Shown here one piece after another: positions 3-19,482 of a DNA stretch of 64,000 bases. The notes below the pieces were generated by a model. It did not search any database and was not told where the DNA came from. It saw only the letters and a program-made list of their open reading frames with translations. A program made the position numbers and the translations under genes. Origin of the DNA: Candidatus Binatia bacterium (lineage in GTDB: Bacteria > Desulfobacterota > Binatia > Bin18); NCBI GenBank assembly GCA_963666315.2, contig CAXXHG010000041.1, positions 27,625 to 91,624 of the forward strand. Reading direction: 5' to 3'. The first letter of the stretch is position 1. Each line of letters begins with the position of its first letter.

Positions 3-1025
3 GCTGAGCGGGTCGCGATTGCCGCCGAGGTGCGCAAAGCGTGGACGTGTACCCTGTGCACGGACCGCAAAGCGGCGCTGTCGCCCTCAGCAGTCACCGG
101 TGAGCACGATACCCACGGTGTCCTTCCGTCCGCCGTAGTCGAAATGATCCACCGCATCACCACCGATCCGGGCCGGCTGAGTAAGGACTGGTATGAGCGG
201 CTCTTAGCCGAGGGTGTAGAGGATACCCATTATGTCGAGGCGCTGGGGGTCGTCGTGCGCACGGTCAGTATCGATTCGTTTTGTCGCGGCCTGGGTGTTC
301 CCCTACATCCATTACCGACACCAATCCCAGGCGAACCGTCCCGTCGGCGGCCGCCGCAGGCCCACATGGAGGCTTCCTGGGTGCCGATGATTCCCAGCGG
401 GCAAGAAACCGGCCCCGATGCTGATATCTACTGGGGCCAGCCTGCTCCAAATGTCATCCGGGCAATGAGTCTGGTCCCAGACGAAGTGCGCGCCAGTATC
501 CATACTCTTATAGTGACGCACTACATGGAATTCGCCCAAGCCATGGATCCGACGACTAACGGCGGACGGGCTATTAGCCGCGCCCAAATCGAACTCTTGG
601 CGTCGCGCGTCTCCGCACTCAATCAGTGCTTCTATTGAACGGCTGCCCATGTGATGCAGCTCCGGGGGAGCAGCCCAACAAGTGAAATTGATCTACATGC
701 AGCCGTGAATGCTAACACAGAGAACGGCGTCCCTCACGGCGCCCTGCTGAATACGTTTGCCGAAGCCGTACTAGGCACGGATGACGTGCAGCTCGACACG
801 GTCCGAAACGCTATCGTCACAGAACTCGGCCCAGCCGCACTGGTCGATGCCGCCGCCGTGATCGGTGGATTTATGCAGATGGACCGCATCGCCGATGCTG
901 CCGGAGTTCCGCTGGATGACTTTGTGGTCGAGGCCACGAATGATGTCCGTGAAGACCTCGGCCTCCACAATTTTGCTTCCGCGCGGAATACGCTAGGGGT
1001 CGCCGGAACTCCGGGAACTCTTTGA
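3..1025 (+). CDS. AhpD/alkylhydroperoxidase-related selenoprotein, copy 1 (5' end outside window; Sec at UGA 636-638)
   Basis: ORFs 30..638 and 651..1025 are in one frame, joined by TGC TTC TAT TGA ACG GCT GCC CAT = C-F-Y-U-T-A-A-H. This is an AhpD-like CxxC..H motif after SRAQIELLASRVSALN. A hairpin follows the UGA. Confidence 0.85.
659..671 (+). promoter_or_regulatory. putative bacterial SECIS hairpin
   Basis: GCTCC-GGG-GGAGC; loop starts 25 nt after the UGA. Confidence 0.65.
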
Positions 1026-1124
1026 TGACGTCGAGGTGTTCCGGCCAGAAGGGTTTCGCAGTGTGAGTAATCGCGCGGCGACTTTTTATATCGGCGTAGG
1101 GCCGACAGAAAGGGAGGGAGTATC

Positions 1125-2255
1125 ATGACCACTATCTCGTATGCCAGCGCTAGCACCCCAGTGCGGGCCGATCTTGTCGAGGCGCACCAACAGTTGTGGC
1201 AAAAACTGGCTGAGCCGGGCGCCTGGTGGACGGGGGCCGAGCGGGTGGCGATTGCCGCGGAGGTGCGTAAAGCCTGGACATGCACCCTGTGCACGGACCG
1301 CAAAGCGGCGCTGTCGCCCTCTGCAGTCACCGGTGAGCACGATAATACCCACGGTGTTCTTCCGTCCGCCGTAGTCGAAATGATCCACCGCGTCACCACC
1401 GATCCGGGCCGGCTGAGTAAAGACTGGTATGAGCGGCTCGTCGCCGATGGTGTAGAGGACACTCATTATATCGAGGCACTCGGCGTTGTCGTCCGGACGG
1501 TCAGTGTCGATTCGTTTTGTCGGGGCGTGGGCATTCTCCCACATCCATTACCGACACCAATCCCAGGCGAACCGTCCCATCGGCGGCCACCACAGGCCCA
1601 CATGGATGTCTCCTGGGTGCCCATGATTACTAGTGGTCAGGAAACCGGCCCCGAGGCCGATCTGTACTGGGGCCAGCCCGCCCCAAATGTCCTGCGGTCA
1701 ATGAGTCTGGTCCCGGATGAGGTGCGTGCAAGTATGCATATTCTTATGGGGGCGCATTACATGGGACTCGCCCAGGCTATGGATCCGACGAGCAACGGAG
1801 GACGGGCCATCAGCAGAGCCCAGATCGAACTCTTAGCGTCGCGCGTCTCCGCGCTCAATGAGTGCTTCTATTGAACAACCTTCCATGGCATGCTGCTCCG
1901 GGGGAGCAGCCCAACAGGTGAGATTGATCTGGATGCAGCCGTGAATGCGAGCACGGAGAACGGCGTCCCTCACGGCGCCCTGCTGAATACGTTTGCCGAA
2001 GCCGTGCTAGGCACGGACGACAAGAAGCTCGACACGGCTCGCAACGCCATCGTCGACGCCCTTGGCCCGGCAGCGCTGGTCGATGCCTCGGCTGTTATTG
2101 CGGCATTTATGCAAATGGACCGGATGGCCGATGCCACCGGAGTTCCGTTGGATGACTTTGTGGTCGAGGCCACGAATGATTTCCGTGAAGACATCGGCCT
2201 CCACGCCTTTGACTCAGCACGGAATACGGTGGGGGACGCGGCAACTCTTCGTTGA
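1125..2255 (+). CDS. AhpD/alkylhydroperoxidase-related selenoprotein, copy 2 (376 aa, Sec250 at UGA 1872-1874)
   Basis: GGAGG RBS and ATG 1125. ORFs 1125..1874 and 1890..2255 are in frame across C-F-Y-U-T-T-F-H. N-terminal CTLC motif. Close paralog of copy 1. Confidence 0.88.
1892..1910 (+). promoter_or_regulatory. putative bacterial SECIS hairpin
   Basis: perfect 8-bp stem GCTGCTCC-GGG-GGAGCAGC; loop 25 nt after the UGA. Confidence 0.75.
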
Positions 2256-2319
2256 TGCAAGGTGTTCGGCTTCGAATTACATCCGCAGATCTTTTTTTAA
2301 TGAGGGGAGTAACACCAGT

Positions 2320-3372
2320 ATGGATTTAGGGATTTTATTCATCGCCGATACCACCGTCCATCAACAGGCAACCCTCGCCCAGCAGGCTGAGAGCAGCGGA
2401 TTCGCTTCGCTGTACATGGCCGAGGCCTACCGCAGCTGTTGGGTCCCGTTGACGGCTATGGCCGCCGCGACGAGTACAATCCGGCTCGGCCCCTACATCC
2501 TCAATGCGTACGGCCACAGTCCATTGATGACGGGTATGGCGGCGGTCGACTTCAACGAATTTAGCGGCGGGCGCCTGTTACTCGGTATCGGCGCCGGGAA
2601 TCGCCAGATCAATGAACAGTGGCATGGGGTCCCTCACGAGCGTGCGCTCACAAAGATGCGCGAATATGTGACCCTGCTGAAACTAATCGCACGCACACGC
2701 CGCGGTGAAACGCTTAAATATGCAGGCAAGATCCACCACATGGACTGGACCCCCACCGCCGATCCGGGCGACCAACCGTTTCCGGTCTATCTCGCCGCAG
2801 TCTTCCCGCGCATGACGCGCATAGCAGCGCAGGTCGCGGACGGGATTGCTGGGGGCGGAACCTTATCTGCAGAGTATTTGCGCGATGTGGTGAAGCCTCA
2901 GGCCGCCACCGCCGCCGCGGACGTTGACCGGGACCCGGCGACCATAGGCTGGAAGGCAGTGTCATTGATTGCAGTCAACCACGATCGTGAACGCGCCCGC
3001 CGCACCGCACGCGAAGCAATCTGTCATCTGTATGCGCCGCTGCCGCATCCCTATTACGAGTACACCATGCGTGAACAGGGATTCGGTGAGGCAGCCGACG
3101 CACTGTTAAAACTCATGCCGGCGGGCAAACTGGAGGCGGCTGTGGACGCTATCCCAGACGAGTGTGTCGACCGACTGACGATCGCGGGGACGCTTGAGGA
3201 CTGCCGGGAACGGATTGCTTCTTACGAGGGAGTGGTGGATGAACTCATACTCGCTAATGTGGCACCTGCAGCCGACGGTGACATGATGCGCGTCTATGCG
3301 CCACTGATGCAACTCGCCGGAGCGGCCTCTTTGGCGTCGGCGCCGCGCCCAGGGAACGGAACAAGCCCTTGA
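2320..3372 (+). CDS. LLM-class flavin/F420-dependent oxidoreductase (Mer-like)
   Basis: MDLGILF start after GGGGAG RBS; AEAY, IRLGP, SGGRLLLGIGAG and PVYLAA motifs. Confidence 0.85.
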   Translation: MDLGILFIADTTVHQQATLAQQAESSGFASLYMAEAYRSCWVPLTAMAAATSTIRLGPYILNAYGHSPLMTGMAAVDFNEFSGGRLLLGIGAGNRQINEQWHGVPHERALTKMREYVTLLKLIARTRRGETLKYAGKIHHMDWTPTADPGDQPFPVYLAAVFPRMTRIAAQVADGIAGGGTLSAEYLRDVVKPQAATAAADVDRDPATIGWKAVSLIAVNHDRERARRTAREAICHLYAPLPHPYYEYTMREQGFGEAADALLKLMPAGKLEAAVDAIPDECVDRLTIAGTLEDCRERIASYEGVVDELILANVAPAADGDMMRVYAPLMQLAGAASLASAPRPGNGTSP

Positions 3373-3561
3373 GTTTCTTTGCGGGCGGAAGATGCGTGCA
3401 GAACAGAAAAGCCCACGAGCCGAATTCGCTCGTGCTCGCACAAACGATCTTCGATGATCTTTGATGATCTTTATTGACACTCCGGAATTGACTTGGACAC
3501 TACTCGTTAAAAAAGGAATGCCTGGTAGGATGCTCCCATTCGTTCCAGAAAGGAGCTGTGT

Positions 3562-4723
3562 ATGCAAAACGGCAATGGCGCAATCACCACAGGGGCAATC
3601 GACGCGGATGGCCATGTTTTAGAGCCACCTGATTTATGGGAAACCTATTTAGAGCCCAAATATCGCGACCGGGCCCTACGGATTCGCACCAATAGGGATG
3701 CTGGAAATCCTTGAAATCGACGGCAAGCAATCCTGGACCGGTTATCCCGGTTTTCCCGGTCAGCTCGGTGGGATGGGCAAGGAGGACATCGATCCCCGGC
3801 CCGACCGAACATACTTGCGTGGCGCGCCGGCGGGTTCAATGGACCCCAAAGAACGGGTCGCCAGGTTAGATGAAGAAGGTTTGGCCAAGGCGATCTTATA
3901 TCCTACTCTGGGACTCTTCTTGGGTGAGATTAAAGATCCCGAACTGGCCACGGCCCACTGTCGCGCCTACAACCGCTGGATCCTTGATTTCTGCTCAGAG
4001 TCTGGTGGACGGCTAATCCCTATCGCCCAAGTCACACTGGACGACGATCCGCATAACGCGGCTGCGGAGTGAGAACGAGCAGTGAAAGACGGGGCCAAAG
4101 GAGGATTCTTTTTACCCTTTACTTGGAAAAAGCAGTCGCCCGGCCACCCACACTTCGATCCGTTGTGGGCGAAGGCCGAAGAACTCGGCGTTCCATTAGG
4201 CATCCATCCCACAGCCGATCCACCTGAACTCGATGTACATAAGAGGTTTTCCGAACTCGCGCAAGGTGATCAGTTCGACTTCACCTGGTATATGGACGTG
4301 CTCGTTTCCCAGGGCATGGTTCAGTCGTTTGTATCGCTCTTTCACTATGGCCTGTTCGATCGTTTTCCTCAGGTTAAATTGGTCGTGCTGGAATCCCAAG
4401 CAGGTTGGACCGGCCATATTTTGGACCGGATGGATGCCGTCTGGCGTAGCCCCTTAGGCAAAACCACCCGCATGAAGGAATCGCCCAAAACGTATTTTAA
4501 TCGCCAGTGCTGGGTTTCTGCCGATCCGGATGAGCAGATGGCCTCGGCGGTGATTAACGCGGTGGGGAGCGATCGTTTCTTCTGGGCGTCGGATTTTCCG
4601 CATCCGGATCATATCAGCCATTACATGCAAGCCTTAGGCGATATGATCGCTCCGCTGTCGGAAGAATCACAACACCAGATTCTGTGGGAGAATGTGAGTA
4701 AGGCGTATAATTTGGGCGAGTAA
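3562..4723 (+). pseudogene. amidohydrolase_2 family, disrupted
   Basis: IDADGHVLEPPDLW from ATG 3562; frameshift near 3695; in-frame TGA at 4070 in AAE*ERAV; C-terminal WASDFPHPD. Confidence 0.8.
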
Positions 4724-4773
4724 AAAATGTACGCAGAAACACCTTACGGCGTAGAGCGCGCAGACGATCCAGA

Positions 4774-4826
4774 CCAGCAGCGCTGGTCGATGTAGCCACC
4801 GTTATTGCGGCATTTATGCAGATGGA
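4774..4826 (+). repeat. relic fragment of the AhpD-related gene
   Basis: encodes PAALVDVATVIAAFMQM; matches 2067-2119 (PAALVDASAVIAAFMQM) at DNA level. Confidence 0.75.
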
Positions 4827-4839
4827 AAGGAGGCAAGCC

Positions 4840-4977
4840 ATGGAATCCCAAGCCATCTCAGCTGACTTTCCGTATGCGGCCCACTTCGTGGACGTGCACG
4901 GCTCACAGATACACTACGTCGAAGCGGGAGCGGGAGATCCCATCTTATTTCTGCACGGCAATCCCATCTCGCCGTAG
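4840..4977 (+). pseudogene. haloalkane dehalogenase N-terminal fragment
   Basis: AGGAGG RBS, then MESQAISADFPYAAHFVDVHGSQIHYVEAGAGDPILFLHGNP followed by a stop. Confidence 0.75.
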
Positions 4978-5028
4978 TGGTATTGCGACAAACCAAAAAG
5001 ATTGAGAATTAGGGATTGGGGATAGACG

Positions 5029-6244
5029 ATGCACGACAACGACCAAGCCATGCGCGATTTTGCAGCGACCCTAGCGGTACCGGAATTCGAAGACACCGCT
5101 TTCACCACACCGCCGGCGCTCCGGGAGGCGCGCGTGGCAATCGTGACGAGCGCCGCGCTCAGCAGCAGCGGCTGGATCTCACAGTGGCAGGCCGAAAAGT
5201 GGGATTTCGCAGATTTCCACTTCGAGACTCTCCCGCACGACGTACGCGATCTGGAGCTCGGCCACGTGAGTCCGAACTTTGATCGCGCTGGCTTTGCCGC
5301 CGACCTGAACGTCGTTTACCCAGTCGACCGTCTGCAGGAACTGGCTGACCAGGGCGTGATCGGCAGTGTCGCGGCCTCCCATTACTCGTTCGCCGGCAAC
5401 CAACCCGAGGGGCTGTCCGCGCTGCGGCTGGATACCGGACCGGCCTGCGCCAAAAAGATGCTCGAGGACGGAGTCGACGTCGTTCTGCTCACCCCCGTCT
5501 GACCCCTGTGCCCGCGTACCGGGTGTACGCTCGCCCACGTCTTCGAGGCTGCTGGCCTGTCAACGGTCATAATCGCGTCGATACGCGACGTCGCCGAACG
5601 CATGCACCCACCGCGGGCGCTGTATGTGGAGTACCCGTTGGGGCTGCCCCTCGGAAAGCCGCGCGACGCCATGTTTCAGCACCGCGTACTCGAAGCGGCC
5701 TTTGCGCTGTTGGAGCAGCCCACGGGACCGGTCCTCGTGGACTTTCCGGAGACGATCCAAAGCAAGGGCGGTGAGCCGTTGGCGTGCGCCCTCCCCCCCC
5801 CCCCGCTACGACCCGAACTTGCACCCGGCCATCGACGAAGCACAGGCGCTGCGCGGTGCATATAATCGAGCCGTGGCGAAAAATGGGCGGACCAGCGTGG
5901 GACGGGCGATCACTGCGGAACAGATTCCTGGAGCCATTGAGAAGTTTGTTCAAATCACCGACGGCCAAGCCTGGGATCAGGTTGGGTTTAACGCCCCGCT
6001 GATGCAGGTGACGACTGATATCCGGGCGTACTACGAAGAGCTAGCTGTCGAGTTGGTGGACGGTGGTCCGATTGCGGCATGGGGCGCCGAGCGCTGGTTC
6101 TACGATAAGACCGAGGCGGGTAAGGTGTTGTTAGCGGCGCGCGAGGAGCTAAAGAAGGCCGGCGCACCGTTCCTGATCTGGTGGCATATGGCGCCGGGGT
6201 CGCGCCAGTCCGGTATGGAGCAAATGAAGAATGTCTCGGTGTGA
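5029..6244 (+). CDS. PrdB/GrdB-family (proline/glycine reductase selenoprotein B-like) selenoprotein with C-terminal extension; Sec158 at UGA 5500-5502; frameshift in C12 tract
   Basis: VAIVTSAAL, DLNVVYPVDRLQELADQGVIG, DGVDVVLLTPV-U-PLC, then EAAGLSTV..PPRALYVEYPLGLPLG in frame. The C-terminal domain continues in the +1 frame after poly-C 5793-5804. Confidence 0.82.
5514..5530 (+). promoter_or_regulatory. putative bacterial SECIS hairpin
   Basis: GCGTAC-CGGGT-GTACGC; GGG lies 18 nt after the UGA. Confidence 0.65.
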
Positions 6245-6379
6245 TACCCGTTCAAGAAATCAGACGAGCCAGCGATGCGCACCACTATAACGGCAACGAG
6301 GTCATCCTCAGGGGCGGAGTGGGGATAGATCATTCAAGCGAGTAATAAATAAACACAAGATCGAGAAGAAGGAGAAGAT

Positions 6380-7234
6380 ATGGCAGAAAACAGTACGTAT
6401 ACACCAGCGAAAGTTTGGCAGTGGAATAAAAAGAATGGCGGCCGGTTTGCCAACATCAACCGGCCCACGGCGGGCGCGACGCACGACAAAGAACTCCCGG
6501 TCGGCGAGCACGCCTTGCAGCTCTATTCTCTGGCCACGCCCAATGGCGTCAAGGTCACCGTCCTGCTGGAAGAGCTCCTCGAGCTCGGCATCAAAGAGGC
6601 CGAGTACGATGCCTACCTGATCGACATCGGCGAGGGGGATCAATTCGGCAGTGGCTTTGTGGCCATCAACCCCAATTCCAAAATCCCCGCGCTCCTTGAC
6701 CGTAGCACTACCCCACCCACCCGCGTCTTTGAGTCAGGTGCCATGCTCGTCTATCTGGCGGAAAAATTTGGCGCCTTCCTGCCGACCGAGCCTTCCGCTC
6801 GCGCGGAATGCATGTCGTGGTTGTTCTGGCAGATGGGCAGCGCGCCCTACCTCGGCGGCGGGTTTGGGCATTTTTATGCCTACGCCCCGGAAAAGTTCGA
6901 GTACCCTATTGATCGCTATACGATGGAGGTGAAACGCCTATTAGATGTGTTGGACCGCCATCTCAGCGAACAGCAGTATTTGTGTGGTGACGACTATACG
7001 ATCGCAGACATGGCCAACTACGCCTGGTATGGCATGTTAGTAGCACACAATGGCTATGAAGCCGCAGAGTTTCTTGACGTCGGAACGTATACGCATGTGC
7101 TCCGGTGGGTGAAGGAGATTGAAGCCAGGCCTGCCGTACAACGAGGCCGACGCGTGAACAAGTCCTGGGGACCAGAGGAAGAGCAGCTCATCGAGCGACA
7201 CAGCGCAAGCGATTTCGATGCGCCGACTGCCTAA
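6380..7234 (+). CDS. yghU: glutathione-dependent disulfide-bond oxidoreductase (GST Nu class)
   Basis: FANINRPTAGATHDKELPVGEHALQLYSLATPNGVKV, NPNSKIPAL, FESGA. Confidence 0.92.
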   Translation: MAENSTYTPAKVWQWNKKNGGRFANINRPTAGATHDKELPVGEHALQLYSLATPNGVKVTVLLEELLELGIKEAEYDAYLIDIGEGDQFGSGFVAINPNSKIPALLDRSTTPPTRVFESGAMLVYLAEKFGAFLPTEPSARAECMSWLFWQMGSAPYLGGGFGHFYAYAPEKFEYPIDRYTMEVKRLLDVLDRHLSEQQYLCGDDYTIADMANYAWYGMLVAHNGYEAAEFLDVGTYTHVLRWVKEIEARPAVQRGRRVNKSWGPEEEQLIERHSASDFDAPTA

Positions 7235-7255
7235 GAATTGGAAGGAAACAGTCAT

Positions 7256-7741
7256 ATGGCAGAAGAAAAAGCAGAGCTGGGTTGGGCAGATCTAATGAAA
7301 ATGGTCGCAGAAGTCGGTTCCGACAACGGCCCAGGCTCAAAAGCATGGAAGGCGGAAGGGTCGGAGACCAAGCGCGACAACAACGGCAAAGTACCCGGCG
7401 AACTCGCAGATATGCCGGCATTGATCATCACCACTACCGGCTCGAAGACGGGCGAAAAGCGCGCCGTGCCTTTGGGCTATCAGCTCGTGGACGGTCGGCT
7501 TCTGGTTATCGCGTCGATGGCCGGCGCAGAGAGAAACCCGCCGTGGTTCAACAATCTGGTTAAAACCTCTGAGGTCTTAGTTGAAAAAGATGGTGAAAGC
7601 TTTTCAGCCAATGCTGTCGTGACACAAGGCGACGATAGGAACTATTTGTTCCAGAAAATCTGCGCGAGCGAGCCCACGTTTGCGGCATATGAAGCGCGCA
7701 CAGATCGCGTCATTCCAGTCGTAGAGTTGCGGCGCAAATAG
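7256..7741 (+). CDS. deazaflavin (F420)-dependent nitroreductase family (Ddn-like)
   Basis: ITTTGSKTGEKRAVPL, IASMAGAERNPPWFNNL, YEARTDRVIPVVEL. Confidence 0.85.
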   Translation: MAEEKAELGWADLMKMVAEVGSDNGPGSKAWKAEGSETKRDNNGKVPGELADMPALIITTTGSKTGEKRAVPLGYQLVDGRLLVIASMAGAERNPPWFNNLVKTSEVLVEKDGESFSANAVVTQGDDRNYLFQKICASEPTFAAYEARTDRVIPVVELRRK

Positions 7742-7796
7742 CAAGAAGTCTGTCCGATCGCAGTAAAGTGTACATTGTATTGCCACTGTTCCCCCC

Positions 7797-8425: not shown

Positions 8426-11400
8426 TCACGGACATTGCGACTCGGCGCGTTCTTCTTCCCGCTTGCCCTGTTGCTGCCACAGTCGTGCGAGACTCGTTGC
8501 AGCGCGCAGTTCCCACGATTTGGCGGCTTGCCTCTGCGCAATGGCTATCGCCTGCAGAAAGCAGGCTTCAGTCTCGGCGGCGTTGGAGTGTGACTGCTTG
8601 AGCAACAGCTCTCCCTTGAGGCGATACAGCTCTGCCTCATAGTAACGCTCCTCAGTGCTCTCGACAAAAGCCAACCCCTCGACCACCGCTCCGAGCCCTT
8701 CCTCAACCTGCCTGTCTTGCCCGTAGGCCTCGGCCAATAAGGCAAGAAAATGCGGCCGCAAGAACTCTGCCCCGATAGCCCGCCAGGCAGCCAGATTCTC
8801 GTGGATCTGCTTGAGGCCTTCCGCTGGGTGTCCTTGCTCGGCCAGCGCCCAGCCCCGGAAGATCGTGCCTTCTCCCAAGAAGAACGGAAACCCCCGCTCG
8901 GTGGACAGCGCGATGACCTCCTCCGTCCGGCCCTGGGCAGCCTGCGCCTCCCGGCGCAACTGATGGAGCCGGACAGCAAAGGTCAAGGCAAACGCGAGAC
9001 TAAAGGGGGGAGACAGGTCATGGGCCAGACGCTGGGCCTCGTGGCTTGTCTTTAGGGCCTGGTCCGGATAGCCCAGAAGCCATAAGACCTCGGTCCTATA
9101 GGTGAGACACGCGACCCCAGGGTCAAACGACCCATAGCTGAACGCCAAAGAGTGGTGCTGCTGCGCGTCGTAGAGTGGACTCCCGTGCTCCAGGTGGGGG
9201 CGGGCCGGGGCCAGTTCTCCCAGGTGGGCCAAAGAGAGTCCTACCGCATAATGAGCCTCTACGAGAAGAGCGGAGTCGGACCCGGTTTGAGCCAAGTGCA
9301 GCAGTTGCTCGGCCAGTTCGTGCGCCTCCTTGTGCTCCGCCCGGACGAGATAAAACGCCCACAGCCCCCACAGCACCGGGAAAAGTTCAGGCGTGTCCCC
9401 CACTTGTTCACACAGCTCCCGGGCCCTCAGGTAGATACTCCCCACTTCTGGGGCCGCGTAACTCTGGGTGGCCGTGAGCGACGGGCCCAAGGCCACGTGC
9501 AGCGCGAGTTCGTGCTGCCAGCGCGCTGGACTGTCCGGCTGGGTCTGGAGCAGCTCGAGGGCCGTGGTGAAGTGTCTAATCGCTTCGTCATTCGCCGCCC
9601 GCTGCACGGCCTGGTGACCGGCTAATTCGAGATACTCGACGGCCTTCTCCGTGTTCCCACTGCGGCTATAGTGATGCGCCAGTTCACTGTAGTGATCGAC
9701 CACACTCGTTCGATACAACCCCTCCATCGCCTGGCCCGTCCGCTCATGCAAGGTCTTGCGCTGCTCCTGCAGCACGGTGCCATACGCCACATCTTGGGTC
9801 AGCGCATGCTTGAAGAGATATTCCGATTCGGGGAAGGCGGGTTGTTCATACAGAAACTCTTTCGCTTGCAGAGACGCTAAGATCTGATGCAGCTCGTCCT
9901 CCGTTTGCGGCACCACCGCGTGTACCAGGCTCACGGGAAACTGCCGACCTATCACCGAGAGCTGTTGCAGCAACTCTTTTTCCGCTGCCGTCAGCCGGTC
10001 AATCCGGGCAGCCAATACGCCTTGAACAGTGGGAGAGATATGAAACTCAGTTGGCGCCGTCTCCAACCGATAATGACCTGGCTCACCGCTGAGAGCCCCG
10101 TCTTCCGCCAACGTCTGCACCACCTCTTCCATGAAGAATGGCGTCCCTTCCGTCTTCTCTAAGATGAGCGGCTTGAGCGGCGCCAGACTGGCATCGTTTC
10201 CAAGTAAGAAGGAGAGCAGCTCTTCCGCCTCTTCTTTTCCCAGGGGCGTCAGGCGCAGCTGGGTGTAATACGTCTTCCCACCCCACTCATGTCGATACTC
10301 AGGCCGGTAGTTTGTGAGCAGTAAGAGCTGGGCTGAGGCAATATTTTCACTCAGCGTATTCAGGGCGCCCTCTGTCTCAGTGTCGAGCCAATGCAAGTCC
10401 TCACAGATGAGAATAAGCGGCTGGTTAAGGCTCTCGCGCAAAAACAGTTTCTTGAGCGCTTCAAACGTGCGCTGGCGCCGAATCTGGGCATCCATTTGCT
10501 GCAGGCTCAACTGTTCATCTTCAATGCCAAGCAGAGAAAAGAGATACGGTAGGGTCTCTTCGAGACTGCGGTCTAAGCCTAGGACCTTCCCAATGAGGCG
10601 TTCGCGCCGACTCCGTGCATCGTCCTGAGGCTCGATCTGACAATAATTTTTAAGCAGTTCAATGAGTGGGAGATAGGGCGATGATTTGCCGTGCGAGACG
10701 GCAAACGCTTCCAGCACCAGACAGCCACTTGGTGACGTGAGCTTGAACTCGTGGAACAGTCGAGACTTGCCTAGCCCCGGCTCACCCATCACCCCGACGA
10801 TTTGCCCGTGGCCCGCTTTCGGCTGCGCGAGTGCCTGCTGGATCTGGTCCATCTCGGTATGGCGCCCTACAAAGCGGCTGAGTCCGCGCCGCGCGGACTC
10901 AGCCGCGTCCTCAACGGACCCGCGCCGATGACCTCGTATACGTTGAGCGGTTCTTCGACGCCTTTGATTTCAGCAGCACCGAGCGCCTTCAGGTCAAAAT
11001 ACCCCTCCGTTAACTTCCGGGTGTATTCGCTGATCACAATCGACCCGGGGTTGGCCATCTGTTCCATGCGAGCGGCGAGGTTTGTTGAGTGGCCCACGGG
11101 CACGTAGTCGGTATGCAAGTCGTCTTTGCGAATGGACCGCACCACGACTTCCCCCGTGTTGATGCCTACTCGCATGTGGAGGGGAACACCGTGTTTGAGG
11201 CGGACTTGATCGCTATACCCCCGCATCTCTTCCTGCATCCGCCAACGCCGCATACAATGCCCGTTGCGGATGATCCTCATGCGCTATCGGCGCCCCAAAC
11301 AACGAAAAGATGCCGTCCCCCAACGCCTGCGCCACGTAGCCGTCATACCGATGCACGGCGTCCATCATGAGTTGCAGTGCAGGGTCAATGATGGCTCGTG

Positions 11401-11800
11401 CGTCTTCGGGGTCTAAGCCTTCGATAAGAGCAGTGGAGCCTTTGAGGTCGGCAAACAACGCCGTGATTGTTTTGCGCTCACCGTCTGCTGCGCCACGGGA
11501 TTCCATGGCCGCTTGTTCGGCGCGGATACGCTCGGCCAGGTGGTGTCGCGTGTACGTTGAGGGGGATTGGGGTTGCGGCTCGGGTCTGGACGATACTGGG
11601 GCTGGCTCCCCGTTACCAGTCCAAACGAGGATTTCTCCGCCTTCGTCCGTGGCTACCCGCTCCGCTTTGATCAGCTCATCCTTCAAGACGTCCAGGCGTT
11701 CGTCGTCCAAGTCAAATTCTAACTTGAGCGCGCGATACGTTACCCGCCCCTTCCCCTGGAGCAGTTCCTTCGCTTCTTTGACGATCTCCGAAAATCTCAC
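8426..11800 (-). pseudogene. class III adenylate/guanylate cyclase-AAA ATPase-TPR protein, frameshifted and C-terminally truncated
   Basis: ERKTITALFADLKGST, GDGIFSLFGAP, RVGINTGEVVV, GEPGLGKSRL Walker A and a TPR tail. Split over three frames (shifts near 11245 and 10890); the usual C-terminal helix is lost. Confidence 0.85.
10874..10906. repeat. perfect 16-bp inverted repeat inside the cyclase gene
   Basis: GCGGCTGAGTCCGCGC-C-GCGCGGACTCAGCCGC. Confidence 0.9.
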
Positions 11801-12004
11801 AGACGGGACTCCCCTTACAGACAGACTGAGCCGATAAGAGCAGGAAATGGGCGAGAGGAGAACTCGACGCGCGGTGTCTCGATTCTGTTGACCTTGACCC
11901 TTCGCCACGCCATACTCAGTTCTATACGCAGCCTTGCGGCCCGTCGTCTTTTAAACGGTATGCGCGTTTGGAGTAGATAATCGTCCGGTTATGAGAGGAG
12001 AACG

Positions 12005-12775
12005 ATGACCATGAAACCTGTGTGTTTAGTGATTGGTGCGGGTGCGGGCATTGGAGGACATGTTGGAAAACGCTTTGCGCGTGAAGGCTACCATGCCTGC
12101 CTGTGCCGCCGGACTGATACAGATGGACTCGACACCATCGTGAAAGACATAGAGACCGCAGGCGGTTCAGCAACCGGTTTCATGCTGAATGCGATCGAAG
12201 AGAACAGCATCGAGGATCTCGTTACCACCATCGAGTCCGATATTGGACCGATCGAAGTCGCCGTGTACAACCTGGGCGCGCAGATTGGCGATCGCGCACT
12301 GAAGGAGACGAGTTATAAGGCGTTTGAGGGGGGGTGGCGAATGGCTACCTTTGGCCTGTTTCGACTGGCTTCGACTCTGTGTCCACGCATGGAAGAGCGC
12401 GGTCAGGGAACGCTCCTGGTCACCTCTGCGACCGCAGCCGTCCGGGGCAATGCGGGCCAACACTCTCACGCGGCGGCCATGGGTGGGCGACGCTTATTAT
12501 GCCAATCGCTCAACGCCGAGTTTGGGCCAAAGGGGATCCACGTCGCACACATACTTGTCGATGGGTCCGTGGATGCACCGGATACGCTCGGCAAGATGCT
12601 TGGCCCGGAGAAGTTTCAGGCATTGCGAGAGAGCAAAGGCTTGACGCACGATGGACTCATCCTGCCGGCTGAGATTGCGAACACCTATTTCCATCTTGCT
12701 CAGCAGCATCGCTCAACCTGGACGCACGAAATCGATGTGCGCGCCTATTCTGATCGCCCCTGGTGGAATCATTAA
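12005..12775 (+). CDS. short-chain dehydrogenase/reductase
   Basis: VIGAGAGIG Rossmann motif, YNLGA, GIHVAHILVDG. Confidence 0.88.
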   Translation: MTMKPVCLVIGAGAGIGGHVGKRFAREGYHACLCRRTDTDGLDTIVKDIETAGGSATGFMLNAIEENSIEDLVTTIESDIGPIEVAVYNLGAQIGDRALKETSYKAFEGGWRMATFGLFRLASTLCPRMEERGQGTLLVTSATAAVRGNAGQHSHAAAMGGRRLLCQSLNAEFGPKGIHVAHILVDGSVDAPDTLGKMLGPEKFQALRESKGLTHDGLILPAEIANTYFHLAQQHRSTWTHEIDVRAYSDRPWWNH

Positions 12776-12784
12776 ATCGCAAGA

Positions 12785-13276
12785 TTACAATTGAACGGAC
12801 TTATTCTTATGGCCCGCCCACTTCGGCAGACCATCGGTCATATCCATCACCCGCATCCCATAGAAAATATGACACGTGGGTTTGAAGCTCGGTGGCACCT
12901 GGGGCGGGTGCCCAAAATCAAATAGGGAGGGAAACGCCAGCCACATCGTGCGGCCTTCATCCGCAATCAGCGTTCCACACCCGGCACAACTGACTTTGCA
13001 GGGCAAAATACGCTCACGCTGATCAAGCTCGCTATTGTAGAAACGGAGCTGATCGAGGCCTTGCGTAATGCGAACGTGGCGTTTGTGAAAGATGGCCGCC
13101 CACTGCATGGGCGCGCCGTGCAGCTTCTGGCAGACCACGCAGTGGCAGATTTTCGCGTCCACCGGATCTGCGCTCACTTCGTACTGGACGGCCTGACACT
13201 GACACCTGGCGTGGTATTTTGCCGTAAACGTCTCATCCCCAATCGATGCAAATACTACTCCAAATTCTTTTTGCAT
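12785..13276 (-). CDS. GFA (glutathione-dependent formaldehyde-activating, CENP-V) family protein
   Basis: CQC, CHCVVCQKLHGAP and CAGCGT zinc motifs; PTCHIFY. Confidence 0.85.
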   Translation of the reverse strand: MQKEFGVVFASIGDETFTAKYHARCQCQAVQYEVSADPVDAKICHCVVCQKLHGAPMQWAAIFHKRHVRITQGLDQLRFYNSELDQRERILPCKVSCAGCGTLIADEGRTMWLAFPSLFDFGHPPQVPPSFKPTCHIFYGMRVMDMTDGLPKWAGHKNKSVQL

Positions 13277-13291
13277 AGTGACGCTGCCATC

Positions 13292-13425
13292 TAGAAGGTG
13301 TTTGGAAAAGGGAGAGGTGGTGTCATTGCGAGGAGCCGTAGGCGACGAAGCAATCTCTTTTCCCGCTACGGATTGCTTCGCTTCGCTCGCAATGACGTGT
13401 ACCGCGACTTTCCAAACACCCTCTA
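13292..13425. mobile_element. MITE-like element carrying REP hairpins
   Basis: 17-bp terminal inverted repeats TAGAAGGTGTTTGGAAA / TTTCCAAACACCCTCTA (1 mismatch); internal GTCATTGCGAG...CTCGCAATGAC. Confidence 0.75.
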
Positions 13426-13554
13426 TCAAGTTTTGCACGGGTCGCAGATGCGGTGTGAGAGAGACTTCATCATTCCTCACACTACGTGAGGTTTATACTC
13501 CGTCTTGACTACGTGACACTACCTAACGAAGGCATGCCGCGAAGGCCCATGCGG

Positions 13555-15210
13555 TCAGTCCATGGCGAGGCCCTCGTAGCCACTTTCCTGCACGGCGTCG
13601 CGGATCTGGCGGTAGTCGCCCACCCCGCCGATGTATGACAACAGGCGACGTGGTTTGCCGGCGACATTCGAACCCATATACCAAGAGTGGGTCTTGACGA
13701 CGAGGGTAGCGTTGGCAGTTTCATCGTGGTGCTTCACCCACTCTGCTTCCTTCTCCGCAGTCGGTTCGATGACGGTGTGGCCATGTTCACGTACGTAATG
13801 GATACAGTCGGTGACCCAGTCGACCTGCTGCTGCAGGCAGGTCGTCATGTTGCACAAGGCCGTCGCAGGTGCCAACGGGCCGGCTACGGTGAACAGGTTT
13901 GGGTAGCCGTGCACCTGCAGCCCGAGGGTTGACCGAATGTCCTGCTGCCACTGCTCAGTGAGCGAGCGGCCATCGCGTCCGTAAATATTCATGCGTGACA
14001 GCGACCCGGTGCCGGCATCGAAGCCGGTCGCCAGGATGATCACGTCGAAGTCGTACTCGCCCTCTTGCGTCTTGAGCCCAGCCTCGGTGAAGCACACAAT
14101 CGGAGCAGCGTTGACGTCGACGAGCTCGACATTGTCGCGGTTGTAGGCTTCGAAATACTTGGTTTCCAGCGGCACGCGATGCAAGCCGAAACCGTGAGTT
14201 TTCGGCATCAACTTTTCGGCGATCTTCGGGTCGTTGACACGCGCGCGGATCTTCCCGCGTACGAACTCGGAGATCTCCTCGTTGACGTCCGCTTCAAAGA
14301 ATAACTCCTGGAAACTGCCATGCCAGAAACTGAGAGAGCCGTCCGCCCAGATCTCCTCGAGCGCCTCGGTGCGCTCCTCAGGCGTAAGGTCACGGTACAC
14401 CCGGCGGTCGAAGTCGTGATCGAATCCACCAAACGTATGGTGCACCCGCTTCTTGAGTTCCGGGTACCGGGCGCGGTAGGCGGCGCGGTCGGCATCGGTG
14501 AAGGCCGGGTTACGCATGGGAATCGCGTACTGGGCCGTGCGTTGAAAGACCGTGAGATGGCTGACCTCGCTGGCGATAGTCTGGATCACTTGGATGCCGG
14601 TCGCACCGGTACCGATGACGCCAACGCGCTTCCCTGCCAGCTCCAGGCCGTCCTTCGGCCAGCGGGCGGTGTGGGCGATCTCGCCCTTAAAGTTTTCATG
14701 GCCCGGAAAGGGCGGCACGAGCGGCGCAGACAGCATGCCGGTGCAGCTCACGAAGAACCGAGTGCTGACTGTGTCGCCGCGATCAGTCTTGATGATCCAA
14801 CGCTTACCGGCCTCGTCGTACTCCGCCGCGGTGACGACGGTGTCGAACTGGATGTCCTTGCGCAGATCGCACTTGTCGGCCACGAAATTGAGGTAGCGAT
14901 CGATTTCCGGCTGGGCGGGGAATCGCTGGCTCCAGTCCCATTCGTCCAGAATTTCGTCAGAAAACCAGTACTGATAGATATAGGATGGAGAATCGACACG
15001 TGCGCCGGGATACCGGTTCCAGTACCACGTTCCACCGACGCCGGAGGCCGCTTCGAAGATCCGGACCTTCAGGTCCAGATTGCGCAGACGATAGAGCTGA
15101 TACATGCCAGCTATACCAGCCCCTACGATGATCGCGTCAAAACCGTTCTGGCCTGTGTCGGAGTTCGCGCCAGCGTGTTGAGAAACGACATCACTCATTG
15201 TAATCTCCAT
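13555..15210 (-). CDS. Baeyer-Villiger monooxygenase (cyclohexanone monooxygenase-like)
   Basis: GAGIAG, GGTWYWNRYPGAR, FKGEIAHTARWP fingerprint, GTGATG, ATGFD. Confidence 0.92.
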   Translation of the reverse strand: MEITMSDVVSQHAGANSDTGQNGFDAIIVGAGIAGMYQLYRLRNLDLKVRIFEAASGVGGTWYWNRYPGARVDSPSYIYQYWFSDEILDEWDWSQRFPAQPEIDRYLNFVADKCDLRKDIQFDTVVTAAEYDEAGKRWIIKTDRGDTVSTRFFVSCTGMLSAPLVPPFPGHENFKGEIAHTARWPKDGLELAGKRVGVIGTGATGIQVIQTIASEVSHLTVFQRTAQYAIPMRNPAFTDADRAAYRARYPELKKRVHHTFGGFDHDFDRRVYRDLTPEERTEALEEIWADGSLSFWHGSFQELFFEADVNEEISEFVRGKIRARVNDPKIAEKLMPKTHGFGLHRVPLETKYFEAYNRDNVELVDVNAAPIVCFTEAGLKTQEGEYDFDVIILATGFDAGTGSLSRMNIYGRDGRSLTEQWQQDIRSTLGLQVHGYPNLFTVAGPLAPATALCNMTTCLQQQVDWVTDCIHYVREHGHTVIEPTAEKEAEWVKHHDETANATLVVKTHSWYMGSNVAGKPRRLLSYIGGVGDYRQIRDAVQESGYEGLAMD

Positions 15211-15283
15211 CTTGACAGTACCTGGCTGGGTGCTTGATCCTCGTATCCCCTGGTAAATTCCGGTTGCTCACCTAGCTCGCGAC

Positions 15284-15718
15284 TTAGGCCCGGCGGGCCA
15301 TATGCTCGTCAAATAGGGACTCTTTCCCGCGGACTCTCTTCATTTCTACCATCAGCGGCTCCAGAACCTCGCGATCCCAATAGTCGTGCCAGCGGCAGAT
15401 CTTCCCCTCACTATTAAATTCAAACATGCCCATGCAGGGGAGGTGAATGGTGACGTCGCCTAAAGCCCACGTTTCGAGCCGGACGTTCATGACGATATTC
15501 CCCGAGGACGCGGTGTGCTTGATATCCATTTTTTGCAGCATCCCCGCGTCAATCCATTCGCCTAACATCTCCTGGACACCGGCATGCCCGGTCGACTGCG
15601 ACGTGCCGATATTTTGATAATCCACATCCTCTGACAGATGTTGTACGCTCTTGGCCGGATTAGCCTCTTCTAAAGAATGACAGTAATCCGTTACTTTCTT
15701 TTCGTTCTCAGCGCTCAT
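15284..15718 (-). CDS. limonene-1,2-epoxide hydrolase / SnoaL-like protein
   Basis: LSEDVDYQN, GNIVMNVRLE, GKICRWHDYWD; AGGAGG RBS. Confidence 0.75.
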   Translation of the reverse strand: MSAENEKKVTDYCHSLEEANPAKSVQHLSEDVDYQNIGTSQSTGHAGVQEMLGEWIDAGMLQKMDIKHTASSGNIVMNVRLETWALGDVTIHLPCMGMFEFNSEGKICRWHDYWDREVLEPLMVEMKRVRGKESLFDEHMARRA

Positions 15719-15819
15719 AAGGTCCTCCTGTATTGCCTTTTGCCCTCGTGCCCGGGTGTGACCCATTAAATTCCGGTGAAACTTTCCCCCTCGTTTGTTT
15801 ACTTGCACCCTCGCTGCCG

Positions 15820-16500
15820 CTACAGGCTTTTTCCCGGTACGACCAGTTCATTGGCCCACTGGTCAAGCTCTCGCTTTACGTCATCTAGCGTGTCGCGGCT
15901 GGCAACTAAATTAATCTGGTCGGCCCCGGCATCCCGATACTGTTTGACGGTGTCCAAGGTCACATCTTGCAATGGCGCCGCATGAATTTTGATCTCGTCC
16001 ATCGTTCGACCGTATTCGGCGAGCAGCGGTTTCAGTTTATCGACACCCGCCTGTACCTCGTCGGGCCGGTCTACGCCGTACCAACCGTCGCAATGCTTCG
16101 CCACACGCCGCAACGCCGCGAGGGATTCGCCGCCAGAATAAATCGGCGGATGGGGGTGCTGGATCGGTTTTGGGTACAGGTGACATTCGGGCAGGGTGTA
16201 GAATTCTCCCTTAAACTGGGACGGTCCCTCGGACCACAGGGTTTTCACGATCTCGATATATTCATTGGCACGCGCGCCGCGTCTCTGCCACGGAATCCCA
16301 AGGGCATCGAATTCTTCCCTCAGCCAACCGATCCCAATGCCGAAGTCGAACCGTCCGCCGGAGAGGACATCCAAGTCGGCAACGTGTTTGGCGGTATAAA
16401 CCGGATTGCGCTGGGGTATGAGGCAGATACCCGTGGCTAACCGCAGGGTGGTCGTCGTCGCCGCGATAAAGGAGAGCGCGGTAACCGGCTCTAGAAAATT
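15820..16500 (-). pseudogene. LLM-class F420-dependent oxidoreductase lacking its N-terminus
   Basis: begins abruptly at FLEPVTALSFIAATTTTLRLATG; LSGGRFDFGIGIGWLREEF; PKPIQHPHPPIY. Confidence 0.75.
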
Positions 16501-17378
16501 AACAGCTGGCGAAGAAAAAGGCATTCCTGAACGAAATGACCTGCGTGTTCCAAATAGAGTGGCGGTGGACAACCACGAATGACGCTATGTAGCTCGTCCA
16601 TAACGGGTTTGCCCAAGACAGGGTCTTACAGCCCCACGGCCATGAAACTTTTACCGGTCCATTCCTCCGCCCAGAACTGTCTCGCGCGTTGGCATTCTTC
16701 AACGCCTTGCATCTCCGGCTCCACGGGGACGAGCTGCGGAAAGCGCCGTACGCCGGCCTGATAGCTCGCGTCGGGGAAGGGAGCCGCGTACGCAGCGATG
16801 TCCATCCAGTCGAGTGCGTCCGGACAACTCACACCCATCAGGCCGGAAACAGGAAGGTCGGTGAACTGAGCGGCATAGGCTTTCCATTGGGCAAAACCAT
16901 CGCTGATGGGTTTACCGACAGGCAGACCGGTATTCATAACGATCAGACGCTTGAATCGTTCCGGCATGTCGAGCGGGAAGGTTAGCCCCAATATGCCACC
17001 CCAGTCCTGGCAGACCAGCGTAATATTTCGTAAGTCAAGGTGTTCGATGAGCCGTAGCAGCGAGTTGCGGTGAAACGAAAAGGTGATGTCGTGGTCGTTG
17101 ACGGGTTTATCCGACCTACCAAAACCGAACCAATCAGGTGCAACAATTCGGCCGCCCGCGCTCAGAAAGGGCGGGATCATTTTTCGATACAGGTAACTCC
17201 AAGTTGGCTCACCATGCAGACACAGGTAGACATCCTTCGCTATTGGAGACCCTTCGTCGATGTAGTGCATGCGACAGCCTTCGTATCCCGGCAGTGTTTC
17301 TACGTAGTGCGGGGCGTACGAAAAATTCGGCAAGTTCGCAAAGCGTTCTTCTGGCGTTCGTTTGCATAGAATACTCAT
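16491..17378 (-). pseudogene. haloalkane dehalogenase with internal TAA and lost C-terminal helix
   Basis: RTPEERF, LHGEPTWSYLYRKM, CQDWGG; AVGL*DPVLG (TAA 16626-16628) continuing in frame to AGHFVQE. Confidence 0.85.
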
Positions 17379-17481
17379 AGCGCAGCCTCCCAATGATACG
17401 ACAACGTAGACACAACACCGGTTCTTCTCGATCTTGGGCTCGTCTGTTACTCGCCTGGATGATCTCCCACCGCTCCAGGGT

Positions 17482-17877
17482 TCATCCGTAATTGCCGAAC
17501 GTCTTACGGCCGGGCCAGTCTGTAAAGTCGGCGTAGGTGCGGTCCAGGACGATTTTGCCGTCGCGCATGGTCAACACGGCCACGAATGGGATCGACCAAT
17601 CGTCACCCTTGTCCGGGTCGAGGAGGGTGACTTCAAGAATCACGACATCGCCGCTGACGTGCATGTGTTCGAGCCGCATATAGCGTTTAGGCGCCGCGGC
17701 ATGAATGGCCTGCTCGAGTTGCAGCCAATCCTCAGTGTTGGCAGGCGCGACGGCGCCCATCCCGTACACTGTGCAATCCGGGGTGTAGCATTCGCGCACG
17801 TAGCGATCGATGTCGGTGTTGTACAGCTCGATGTGGCGCTTGGCGTTTTCGATATTGCGTTGTTCCTCTTCCGTCAT
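17482..17877 (-). CDS. SnoaL/NTF2-like protein
   Basis: AGGAG RBS; GDVVILE, VLTMRDGKIVLDRTYAD. Confidence 0.75.
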   Translation of the reverse strand: MTEEEQRNIENAKRHIELYNTDIDRYVRECYTPDCTVYGMGAVAPANTEDWLQLEQAIHAAAPKRYMRLEHMHVSGDVVILEVTLLDPDKGDDWSIPFVAVLTMRDGKIVLDRTYADFTDWPGRKTFGNYG

Positions 17878-17935
17878 GGGATATCTCCTGTGTGGAACAG
17901 ACCTCCTCTCGGTCCTGTTCCGCTGATGCGGCGGG

Positions 17936-18307
17936 TTAATTCCAGCCCGCATTATCAATCATATATTCCCAACTCCCGTCCGCTTGGCGTCGTACCACCT
18001 CCGTCCCATTGCCCGACATCGAAACCGCCTGCCCATCCGGAGTCGTGCCCGACAGCGTCCACGGAGAGTTCAAGAGCGCAATATCGCCGTTCTGCGTCAC
18101 CGTGGCTTCAATCGTGAAATGAAGCTTCTGCGCGAAAAACCCGCGCATAATTTCCCGAATGGCAGCCCTTCCTCTGGCGACCCGGCCCCCCTCCTGCACA
18201 AAGGCGGCGTCCTCCTCGTAGAGCGACACTAAGCCCTCAAGGTCGCCGGTATTAAACGCTTCCATAAAGAGGCGGTCACAATCTTCGGGTTTATGTGCCA
18301 CTGCCAT
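17936..18307 (-). CDS. DUF4440/NTF2-like (ketosteroid isomerase-like) protein
   Basis: AFNTGDLEGLVSLYEEDA, EVVRRQADGSWEYMIDN. Confidence 0.8.
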   Translation of the reverse strand: MAVAHKPEDCDRLFMEAFNTGDLEGLVSLYEEDAAFVQEGGRVARGRAAIREIMRGFFAQKLHFTIEATVTQNGDIALLNSPWTLSGTTPDGQAVSMSGNGTEVVRRQADGSWEYMIDNAGWN

Positions 18308-18325
18308 CGGACACCACCGTTCGTG

Positions 18326-19482
18326 TTACGAGTCTTCCTGTCGGCATGCCACCAGTTGGGCCATATACGCTCCGGTCTGGACCGGGCTGACCCGCAGGCC
18401 CCTGTCTTGGAACGGCGGCAAGTCGGGAACAATGCCCTGGGCAAGCGGCAACTCTAGCGAGACGTTTACGGTGCGCTGCAGAAAACACTCACGCTTACTA
18501 CACGATTGGTAGCCGATGGTGAGATCAAGCCTGATTGTCTTCTGGTCTAGAGGCTTGAGCACGTTGAGCAGTTCAGTCGTCGCGGTAATGGGGATCCCAA
18601 TATCGACCGTCCCTTCCCAGGCAGGCAATTCCAGCCCCAGTTCCTCCATCACCAGCGGCGTGGCAGCTGGATACACCGGCTGCCCGAGACGTATCCCAGG
18701 CACTGCCTTGACAGTCACCTGCGTTGCCACAAAACCACTGGGAACTGGTTCGGCGTAGATATGCAGGCCTTCCCGAATGTCGAGCCGACAGTACAGTCGA
18801 CGGGTCAACTCGATCTTCAGATCTCCCCCAGAGAGAAAGACGGAGACACGAACGTCGCCGTCTCGATATTCCTGCTGCGGCGCATCTGGGCTCAGGACAA
18901 TCTGCCCACCCGCTTCTTCGAGGAAGCGTTCGGGCACGTCACGGGTGGCGAGATGTTGGTTGAAATATTTCCTGACAACTATCCCCGACGCATCCACGAT
19001 ATAGGTTCCGGGGAACGGGATGCCGTAGAACACCTCGGCGTCCGCTCCGTCGGATCGATCAAGGTGTTCAGGATGCCAAAGCGCGTAATGACCGCGGAGT
19101 CGCTGTCTGACAACAGATCGTAGGTAATACCGTACGTCCGGGCAAAATCCGCCAGCCCGTCTTGGGGATCATAGCTCACCGCAAAGACTTTCATCCCGGC
19201 GGCCTCAAAGTCCGGCAAGCGACGTTGCAACTCCACGAGTTGCGTCATGCAGGACGGTCACCACACGGCCGAGCGTTGAAAACTGAGCACGGCTTTGTGC
19301 TGGCCGCGGGCGGCGTGGAAGTCGATCAGCTCGCCGTGTTGATTCGGGAGCCGGAACTCCGGTAGGCGGTCTCCTACCGCTGGGCCGGTTGAGAAATCCG
19401 GATCCGGAATGCGCCGGGCAGGATGCTCCACAGGCGCAGGACCAACAAAGCCAAACTCATCTTGGAAGCCTTCACTCTCCAT
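18326..19482 (-). CDS. peroxiredoxin-like (AhpC/TSA) selenoprotein fused to a DsbD N-terminal-like domain; Sec75 at UGA 19258-19260; 1-nt frameshift near 19045
   Basis: GPAVGDRLPEFRLPNQHG..FQRSAVW-U-PSC-MTQLVEL..AVSYD..LLSDSDSAVITRFG, then PFPGTYIVDASG and LDIREGLHIYA..YQSCSKRECF. Confidence 0.82.
19227..19243 (-). promoter_or_regulatory. putative bacterial SECIS hairpin
   Basis: minus strand GCAACTC-GTG-GAGTTGC; loop 21 nt after the UGA. Confidence 0.7.

Follow-up and report, generated by a model that had tools for sequence, protein, structure and literature searches.

We analyzed a window of 64,000 nt from the genome of a Candidatus Binatia bacterium (assembly G000; 4.99 Mb in 47 contigs, 92% complete), located on a contig that we term C41, and we found four genes with in-frame TGA codons that are very probably ordinary bacterial selenoprotein genes in an uncultured marine genome encoding many selenoproteins. 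Positions below are window coordinates unless a contig is named. The four genes are two copies of an AhpD-related gene (genes 1 and 2), a PrdB-like gene (gene 3), and a peroxiredoxin (Prx)-like gene with a DsbD_N domain (gene 4). Their TGAs lie exactly where the original prediction, made from the window alone, had placed them, at 636–638, 1872–1874, and 5500–5502 on the plus strand and at 19260–19258 on the minus strand. Each falls within a redox motif, in which U marks the selenocysteine (Sec) position: NQCFYUT (636), NECFYUT (1872), TPVUPLCPRT (5500), and AVWUPSCMTQ (19258). The evidence supports reading all four as Sec codons, at least ancestrally. Because all of the families involved have been catalogued since 2005, the result is a solid annotation fix and not a discovery.

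The same protein family continued past each TGA, as had been predicted, and family profiles aligned across all four codons. To these genes we compared a set of 41 related genomes, with 24 sampled members of the genus, and contigs from four read runs, including X2 and X3 (both seawater metagenomes) and X4; in the runs recorded as RNA, only a small share of the searched words was found (0.06–0.16). In the homologous loci, the Sec column held TGA or Cys, and TAA or TAG was never seen. Nearly all matches to the PrdB-like and Prx-like proteins in the 41 related genomes contained a TGA. In particular, the aligned column was TGA in 13 of 13 AhpD-related genes (12 loci), in 14 of 14 PrdB-like loci, and in 14 of 14 Prx-like loci. 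For the PrdB-like gene, TGA was also present in 61 of 61 additional loci, the remaining one of these 62 loci not reaching the column; the Binatia records among the 62 overlap with those of the 14-locus set. The PrdB-like TGA was retained in records from Binatia, Gammaproteobacteria (Porticoccaceae and SAR92), Dehalococcoidia/Chloroflexota, and Acidimicrobiia/Actinomycetota.

The machinery for Sec insertion, which the original prediction had led us to expect, was complete in this genome: selA, selB, and selD scored 593, 378, and 308 bits, respectively, each above its curated cut-off, and a tRNA-Sec gene adjoins selA. The tRNA-Sec gene reached 66.8 bits with the Rfam model, over its gathering score, and ARAGORN called it SeC with anticodon tca. 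SelD forms the C-terminal half of a protein of 757 aa (contig C28, minus strand; 1393–3663 of locus L009) that begins with a Pyr_redox_2 domain and has a CGGC motif, and this protein matches the Ndh-SelD fusion reported in the Global Ocean Sampling (GOS) paper, which, like the Sargasso Sea paper and a 2026 review, is cited here from excerpts.

Short stems with G-containing loops were present downstream of all four UGAs, as had been predicted, and resemble the Sec insertion sequence (SECIS); the predicted distance of 18–25 nt proved only approximate, with the hairpins starting at the 18th, 18th, 12th, and 15th base after the UGA in genes 1 to 4, respectively. The hairpin of gene 1 (656–674, plus strand) has eight pairs with one A·A mismatch and a GGG loop, and encodes part of (Q)LRGSS, and that of gene 2 (1892–1910, plus strand) has eight perfect pairs and the same loop. 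Six pairs and a CGGGU loop form the hairpin of the PrdB-like gene (5514–5530, plus strand), and seven pairs and a GUG loop, encoding QLVELQ, form that of the Prx-like gene (19227–19243, minus strand). Covariation supported these structures. In an alignment of 54 distinct PrdB-like sequences, from which one broken copy with an indel was excluded, 98.8% of the cells were paired and three of the six pairs varied at both positions (in eight sequences, for instance, C-G replaces U-A); none of 500 shuffles reached the observed values, and slid controls collapsed. For the AhpD-related hairpin (11 distinct sequences), 89.8% of the cells were paired, two of the eight pairs changed on both sides, and 2 of 500 shuffles reached the covariation score. 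For the Prx/DsbD_N hairpin (six sequences), 92.9% were paired, and one pair was A-U in three sequences and G-C in the other three.

The hairpins as a class also exceeded chance across the genome. We folded bases +4 to +48 at 31 candidate Sec sites that had been chosen by coding potential and motif, with no hairpin criterion, and obtained a median energy of −13.8 kcal/mol, compared with −9.3 kcal/mol at 1130 in-frame Cys codons (Mann–Whitney p = 1e-7) and −7.6 kcal/mol at 349 true TGA stops (p = 1e-10). Like the E. coli fdhF-type SECIS, as described in the excerpts, the hairpins lie directly 3′ of the UGA, inside the coding sequence, and have a small G-containing apical loop; in contrast to that element, the stems are short (6–8 pairs), and an Rfam search across the whole window returned no match to any family.

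Based on these genes, we proposed a conventional route for Sec insertion. SelD, fused here to a flavoprotein domain, would make selenophosphate, SelA would charge tRNA-Sec, and SelB would bring the charged tRNA to the ribosome, directed by a small G-containing hairpin that would sit within the coding sequence, 12–18 bases past the UGA. The binding of SelB, like the biochemical roles of the products, is predicted from the genes. The products would be thiol/selenol oxidoreductases: each of the tandem AhpD-related proteins would combine a CxxU center with a conserved N-terminal CxxC, the PrdB-like protein of about 400 aa would act as a UxxC selenol/thiol reductase, and the fourth protein would carry a peroxiredoxin-like UxxC domain fused to a DsbD_N domain.

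The two AhpD-related genes are tandem copies with 85% identity. Copy 1 occupies 1–1025 on the plus strand, truncated by the window edge; the whole gene, C41:27516–28634, begins 109 bases upstream of the window and contains one TGA, and its stop codon is also a TGA (1023–1025), followed by a second TGA. Its Sec codon is at 636–638, and it scored 425.4 bits against NF041238 (profile positions 26–357). Copy 2 (1125–2255, plus strand; 376 aa), with its Sec codon at 1872–1874, scored 458.9 bits over positions 1–356 of 357. Thus, both copies scored over the 175-bit cut-off of NF041238 and both carry the CFY(U/C)T motif of this family. Among the 41 related genomes, all 28 matches to the AhpD-related protein at E ≤ 8.5e-58 contained TGA, and the Cys form was represented by two full-length homologues that read CFYCT (P0034 and P0073). 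These genes agree with NF041238 (AhpD_rel_CFYUT) in the full-length profile, the CFYUT motif, and the occurrence of Sec and Cys forms; we observed no essential difference from that family, and the two copies stand here in tandem with a third, double-domain AhpD-type Sec gene just upstream. As had been predicted, gene callers split these genes: of the 120 best relatives that the AhpD-related protein has in the database, 117 were fragments, which covered 43–66% of the query and mostly were of about 245 aa, ending at the TGA. One Binatia member (P0029) is named "alkylhydroperoxidase-related (seleno)protein" by NCBI. Genus relatives have a single AhpD orthologue with about 61% identity. In addition, a contig of the seawater run X2 joins position 890 to position 2127, skipping 1236 bases, so that the tandem copies are fused into one AhpD copy. 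The AhpD duplication is polymorphic or recent.

The PrdB-like gene (5029–6244, plus strand) encodes about 400 aa, and not 278, in two frames of the assembly, with the C-terminal 150 residues lying in the next frame and ending at 6244. Its Sec codon (VUPLC) is at 5500–5502. The gene belongs to the GRDB superfamily, with a Pfam GRDB (PF07355) score of 43.4 bits against a cut-off of 22, and PF07355 is annotated on many full-length homologues. Both Pfam GRDB and TIGR04483 span residues 30–229, across U158; for TIGR04483, the window gene scored 111.8 bits and a full-length orthologue 118.9 bits, neither reaching the cut-off of 300. Among 58 full-length homologues in the database, the Sec column was occupied by Cys in 52, Gly in four, Ser in one, and Ala in one. 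In the four Gly homologues (P0207, P0210, P0218, and P0221) the motif reads LGPMC, and the Gly codon GGA is one base away from TGA. The genome contains four PrdB-like copies.

The marine PrdB-like family differs from the clostridial enzyme in ways that bear on its function. It shares with clostridial PrdB (TIGR04483) and with protein B of glycine, betaine, and sarcosine reductase a homologous N-terminal region with Sec in UxxC; however, it scored only 112–119 bits, under the cut-off of 300, and has about 150 additional C-terminal residues that match no Pfam or NCBIfam family. No match to a PrdA/GrdE-type partner (TIGR04480 or PF09338) was found in this 92%-complete genome, and the control genomes gave no match either. 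The family occurs in aerobic marine lineages. PrdA is not mentioned in the excerpted GOS text, and the literature that we searched does not discuss whether marine PrdB is a proline reductase. We suggest, from sequence comparison, that the PrdB-like protein is probably not a D-proline reductase. A sequence search of the PDB with this protein returned nothing at E ≤ 0.01. The AlphaFold model of an orthologue was confident (predicted local distance difference test 93.9; predicted template modeling score 0.92), and a Foldseek search of this model against the PDB returned no match at E ≤ 0.001. Clustering of open reading frames (ORFs) around the 62 loci recovered no neighbor common across phyla, although this analysis was crude and swamped by spurious high-GC ORFs. 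The chances seem to us evenly balanced that the marine "PrdB" of about 395 aa, which held Sec in all loci examined from four phyla, is no proline reductase subunit but a stand-alone selenoenzyme with its own C-terminal domain and an unsolved fold, and that, similarly, this oxygenase-rich lineage goes against the rule for aerobes by keeping 30 or more selenoproteins, six of them in a single lineage-specific GC-rich stretch.

In the excerpted Sargasso Sea and GOS papers, the marine "proline reductase PrdB" (pfam07355) shares with this gene the Pfam family, the UxxC motif, and a strong preference for Sec; we observed no difference at the family level, and the window member is distinguished by a frameshift within a run of 12 C residues. 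The window protein shares 73% identity with proteins of gammaproteobacterial metagenome-assembled genomes (loci L068, L070, and L111) but no more than 55% with a paralogue encoded at C43:506575–507330 of the same genome. This higher identity to the gammaproteobacterial proteins than to the paralogue hints at transfer between lineages. The marine PrdB-like family is an abundant selenoprotein family, and it is the part of these results most worth experiment.

The Prx-like gene (18326–19482, minus strand) carries its Sec codon (WUPSC) at 19258–19260. The AhpC-TSA profile scored 83.3 bits, over its cut-off of 26, and covered residues 75–180, across U114, which is the first residue of the UxxC motif. 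After a frameshift near 19043, the gene runs on to 18326, its downstream frame encoding a DsbD_N domain (27.7 bits). Of four Cys paralogues of the Prx-like domain encoded by this genome, two carry Cys in the Sec column. The gene resembles "Prx-like 1" (pfam00578) of the GOS catalogue in combining AhpC-TSA with UxxC, and GOS contains Prx-like fusions to extra domains with Cys; here, in contrast, the fused domain is DsbD_N, a fusion that we did not find named in the excerpts. Elsewhere in the genome, a 1-Cys peroxiredoxin copy (C43:243498–243842) contains an in-frame TAG and other stops and looks like a pseudogene.

Several observations weigh against the interpretation as four ordinary selenoprotein genes. 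We infer the actual insertion of Sec at the four UGAs indirectly, from the sequence evidence. When the 60 bases after each UGA were folded, the energies were within the range of shuffled sequences (z = 0.35, −1.66, 0.16, and −1.36 for genes 1 to 4, respectively), and therefore energy alone was dropped as evidence for the individual hairpins. The hairpins are located in conserved codons, so that constraint on the protein accounts for some of their conservation, and it is the compensatory changes that carry weight. In addition, the assembly contains at least one spurious in-frame TGA, so that its base calls are not beyond doubt. This fifth TGA (4070–4072, plus strand) lies in an Amidohydro_2 gene (3698–4723), in the context AAAEUERAV, with no Cys or redox motif. 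We rejected it as a Sec codon: the position is not a Cys position, and base 4071 was T in the contigs of all four runs compared, so that the codon there reads TTA (Leu); the window base is either specific to this assembly or a rare variant. The reading frames of genes 3 and 4 are also broken. The PrdB-like orthologues are 386–395 aa in one frame, and the window gene is out of frame after the C12 run. In the window and in X4, the loss of one base near 19043 breaks the Prx-like gene; in the 99% identical relative G009 and in X2 and X3, the base is present, but a loss of two bases at 18877 breaks the DsbD_N domain. In a third genus member, the Prx-like gene is split and contains a second TGA, and its hairpin has lost its pairing.

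Given such defects, we considered whether the four TGAs are true stops or nonsense mutations and the ORF pairs split or dead genes. In-frame TGAs do occur in this genome at conserved non-Cys positions, namely at 4070 in the window, where base 4071 is contradicted by the four runs, and at C43:606873, C9:44879, and C15:199427, in two response regulators and an alpha/beta hydrolase (HGFPQCUYLWR); these last three are probably nonsense mutations or assembly errors. Defects of this kind are scattered through the assembly or the lineage, and an in-frame TGA here needs comparative support before it is read as Sec; the case for the four Sec codons rests on conservation in other genomes and not on the assembly alone. 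That conservation makes true stops a very unlikely explanation: the four TGAs stand at redox Cys columns, TGA was present in every homologous locus examined, extending across four phyla for the PrdB-like gene, the Sec machinery is complete, and covarying hairpins follow the codons. Even less credible is that the organism decodes TGA as one of the standard residues, Trp or Gly, following genetic code 4 or 25. The TGA at C15:199427 falls where Trp would be expected in the alpha/beta-hydrolase motif, which would fit such recoding. However, of the 1130 long open frames sampled, 349 ended in TGA, homologues align Cys and not Trp or Gly with the four TGAs, and tRNA-Sec, selA, and selB are present.

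That all four genes are intact in living cells, with the frameshifts of genes 3 and 4 being assembly errors, is possible, and we regard it as somewhat unlikely. The shift in gene 3 lies inside a 12-base homopolymer (5793–5804, plus strand), a classic site of error; the genome has no other C12 run. The base that the assembly gives at 4071 is likewise demonstrably odd. The frame would be kept if the run were 8, 11, or 14 bases long, and relatives have a shorter run (LPPRYDP). The C12 run could be a sequence error or a slippage-prone tract, and because the frameshift lies within it, the PrdB-like gene could be either whole or broken in living cells. For gene 4, the break corresponds to one missing base (19043–19044, minus strand), where a near-identical relative has one more C, and the contigs of X2 and X3 hold this base. 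However, X4 lacks it, like the window, while X2, X3, and G009 carry the two-base loss at 18877, and no single open frame runs through the gene in the window, G009, X2, or X3. Among the 24 sampled genus members, the Prx/DsbD_N gene was found in two (E = 1.5e-40 or better) and was broken in both. Thus, since every close version seen lacked an uninterrupted frame over the full length, decay of the Prx-like gene is probable, and the different frame-breaking indels suggest independent decay among lineages.

In the genome as a whole, we counted at least 30 Sec genes in which an alignment to a family or to homologues extends through the TGA. A genome scan by codon score gave 824 candidates, mostly artefacts of antisense or adjacent genes, and was replaced by a filter for the best of six frames (131 candidates) followed by a motif filter and family checks. 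The 30 genes comprise the four window genes, seven paralogues with one TGA, and 19 of 20 further candidates; the 19 include AhpD/YciW-related, Prx, five UGSC-family, DsbA-like, Grx/GST_N-like, and DUF3179 genes. One candidate (C22:13688–14815, motif DUGC) was not confirmed as a Sec gene: its TGA falls between an EthD and a DUF1330 domain, and it may be two genes. The DUF3179 protein (C39:16483–18003) contains YUTLCGSG, and the excerpted 2026 review gives this family as a selenoprotein family.

Six of the 30 Sec genes lie within 27.6 kb (C41:19330–46884), that is, the four window genes and two upstream of the window. The nearer of the latter (C41:26183–27454) is a double AhpD-type Sec gene of 424 aa (SSCYYUT) that ends 61 bases before gene 1, and the farther one (C41:19013–19570) encodes a YciW-related (seleno)protein (GCPFU). 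The neighborhood also contains luciferase-like monooxygenases, a glutathione S-transferase (GST), an F420H2-dependent reductase, a protein resembling flavin-containing or Baeyer–Villiger monooxygenases (BVMO), and an alpha/beta hydrolase. The original prediction had proposed that the Sec genes and the neighboring F420/flavin oxidoreductases, GST, BVMO, and hydrolases constitute one selenium-based redox or detoxification module. The density of Sec genes is in its favor, as six within 27.6 kb were never obtained in 20,000 random placements of 30 sites (p = 0.011 when the tandem array of three genes was counted once), as are the oxygenases, GST, F420H2-dependent reductase, and hydrolase among the neighbors, and the adjacency of Prx-like and AhpD-like genes in metagenomes noted in excerpts of the GOS paper and the 2026 review. 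However, the window Sec genes lie on both strands at spacings of 3–13 kb, and unrelated genes, a cyclase/ATPase regulator among them, separate them. If the tandem pair is treated as one locus, three loci within 18.7 kb are not unusual in a genome with 30 Sec genes (p of about 0.13). The set is not conserved either: five genus members gave no match to the two upstream Sec genes at E ≤ 1e-20, and of the window genes, only the AhpD and PrdB-like ones have recurring orthologues in relatives, 33–46 kb apart in three near-complete genomes (G001, G004, and G018). The Prx/DsbD_N gene was found in only two of the 24 sampled genus members (E = 1.5e-40 or better), broken in both, and one seawater strain has a single AhpD copy. 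The module is therefore improbable, and this part of the prediction was not borne out. Known operons with several selenoproteins, SAO (with six Sec genes) and Tso, likewise bring Sec genes close together, but according to the excerpts these are co-oriented operons of one pathway, whereas the genes here are on both strands, interspersed with others, and not conserved as a set. We read the region as a flexible, lineage-specific one in which redox genes have accumulated, and not as an operon; its Sec genes do not form a conserved functional unit. The GC content of the Sec-gene stretch is 0.576, compared with 0.551 for the genome, between the 95th and 99th percentile of 30-kb windows. C41:1–50000 is GC-richer as a whole (0.55–0.60) than the genome and may be an acquired or flexible region.

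The suggestion that these genes were hidden, in the sense of new, did not hold, since the Sargasso Sea and GOS catalogues already contain all three families, and the curated NCBIfam model for one of them bears CFYUT in its name. The Sargasso Sea paper describes "hypothetical protein 1" (CxxU), "proline reductase PrdB" (UxxC; 42 Sec to 1 Cys), and "Prx-like protein" (UxxC), and it describes SECIS as a stem-loop whose small apical loop contains G. Table 2 of the GOS paper contains AhpD-like 1 and 2, PrdB (pfam07355; 235 Sec, 110 Cys), and Prx-like 1, and in the 2026 review, "hypothetical protein 1" from the Sargasso Sea selenoproteome is equated with NF041238. In the literature that we searched, nothing relevant on selenoproteins of Binatia or Binatota was found. 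Thus, the four genes are fresh members of known families, in a lineage for which we found no relevant selenoprotein literature. The practical value of the result is in annotation: standard calls cut such genes at the UGA, and consequently the redox capacity of Binatia and other marine lineages is under-read. A modest wider point is that 30 or more selenoprotein genes and an Ndh-SelD fusion occur in a genome that also encodes BVMO-type and luciferase-like oxygenases; according to the excerpted 2026 review, aerobes rarely keep selenoproteins, and the record counts are 57 and 63 genes.

Small differences between the window and the read-run contigs were also seen outside the Sec genes. Relative to the window, X2 and/or X3 have small indels at 3700, 7371, 8527, 8781, 9385, 10647, and 10896, of which X4 shares only that at 3700; these sites are in or around an 808-aa AAA_16/TPR gene, cyclase fragments, and the start of the Amidohydro_2 gene. 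Several genes at 1–20 kb look fragmented, for example Bac_luciferase at 15820–16572 and Guanylate_cyc at 10867–11280.

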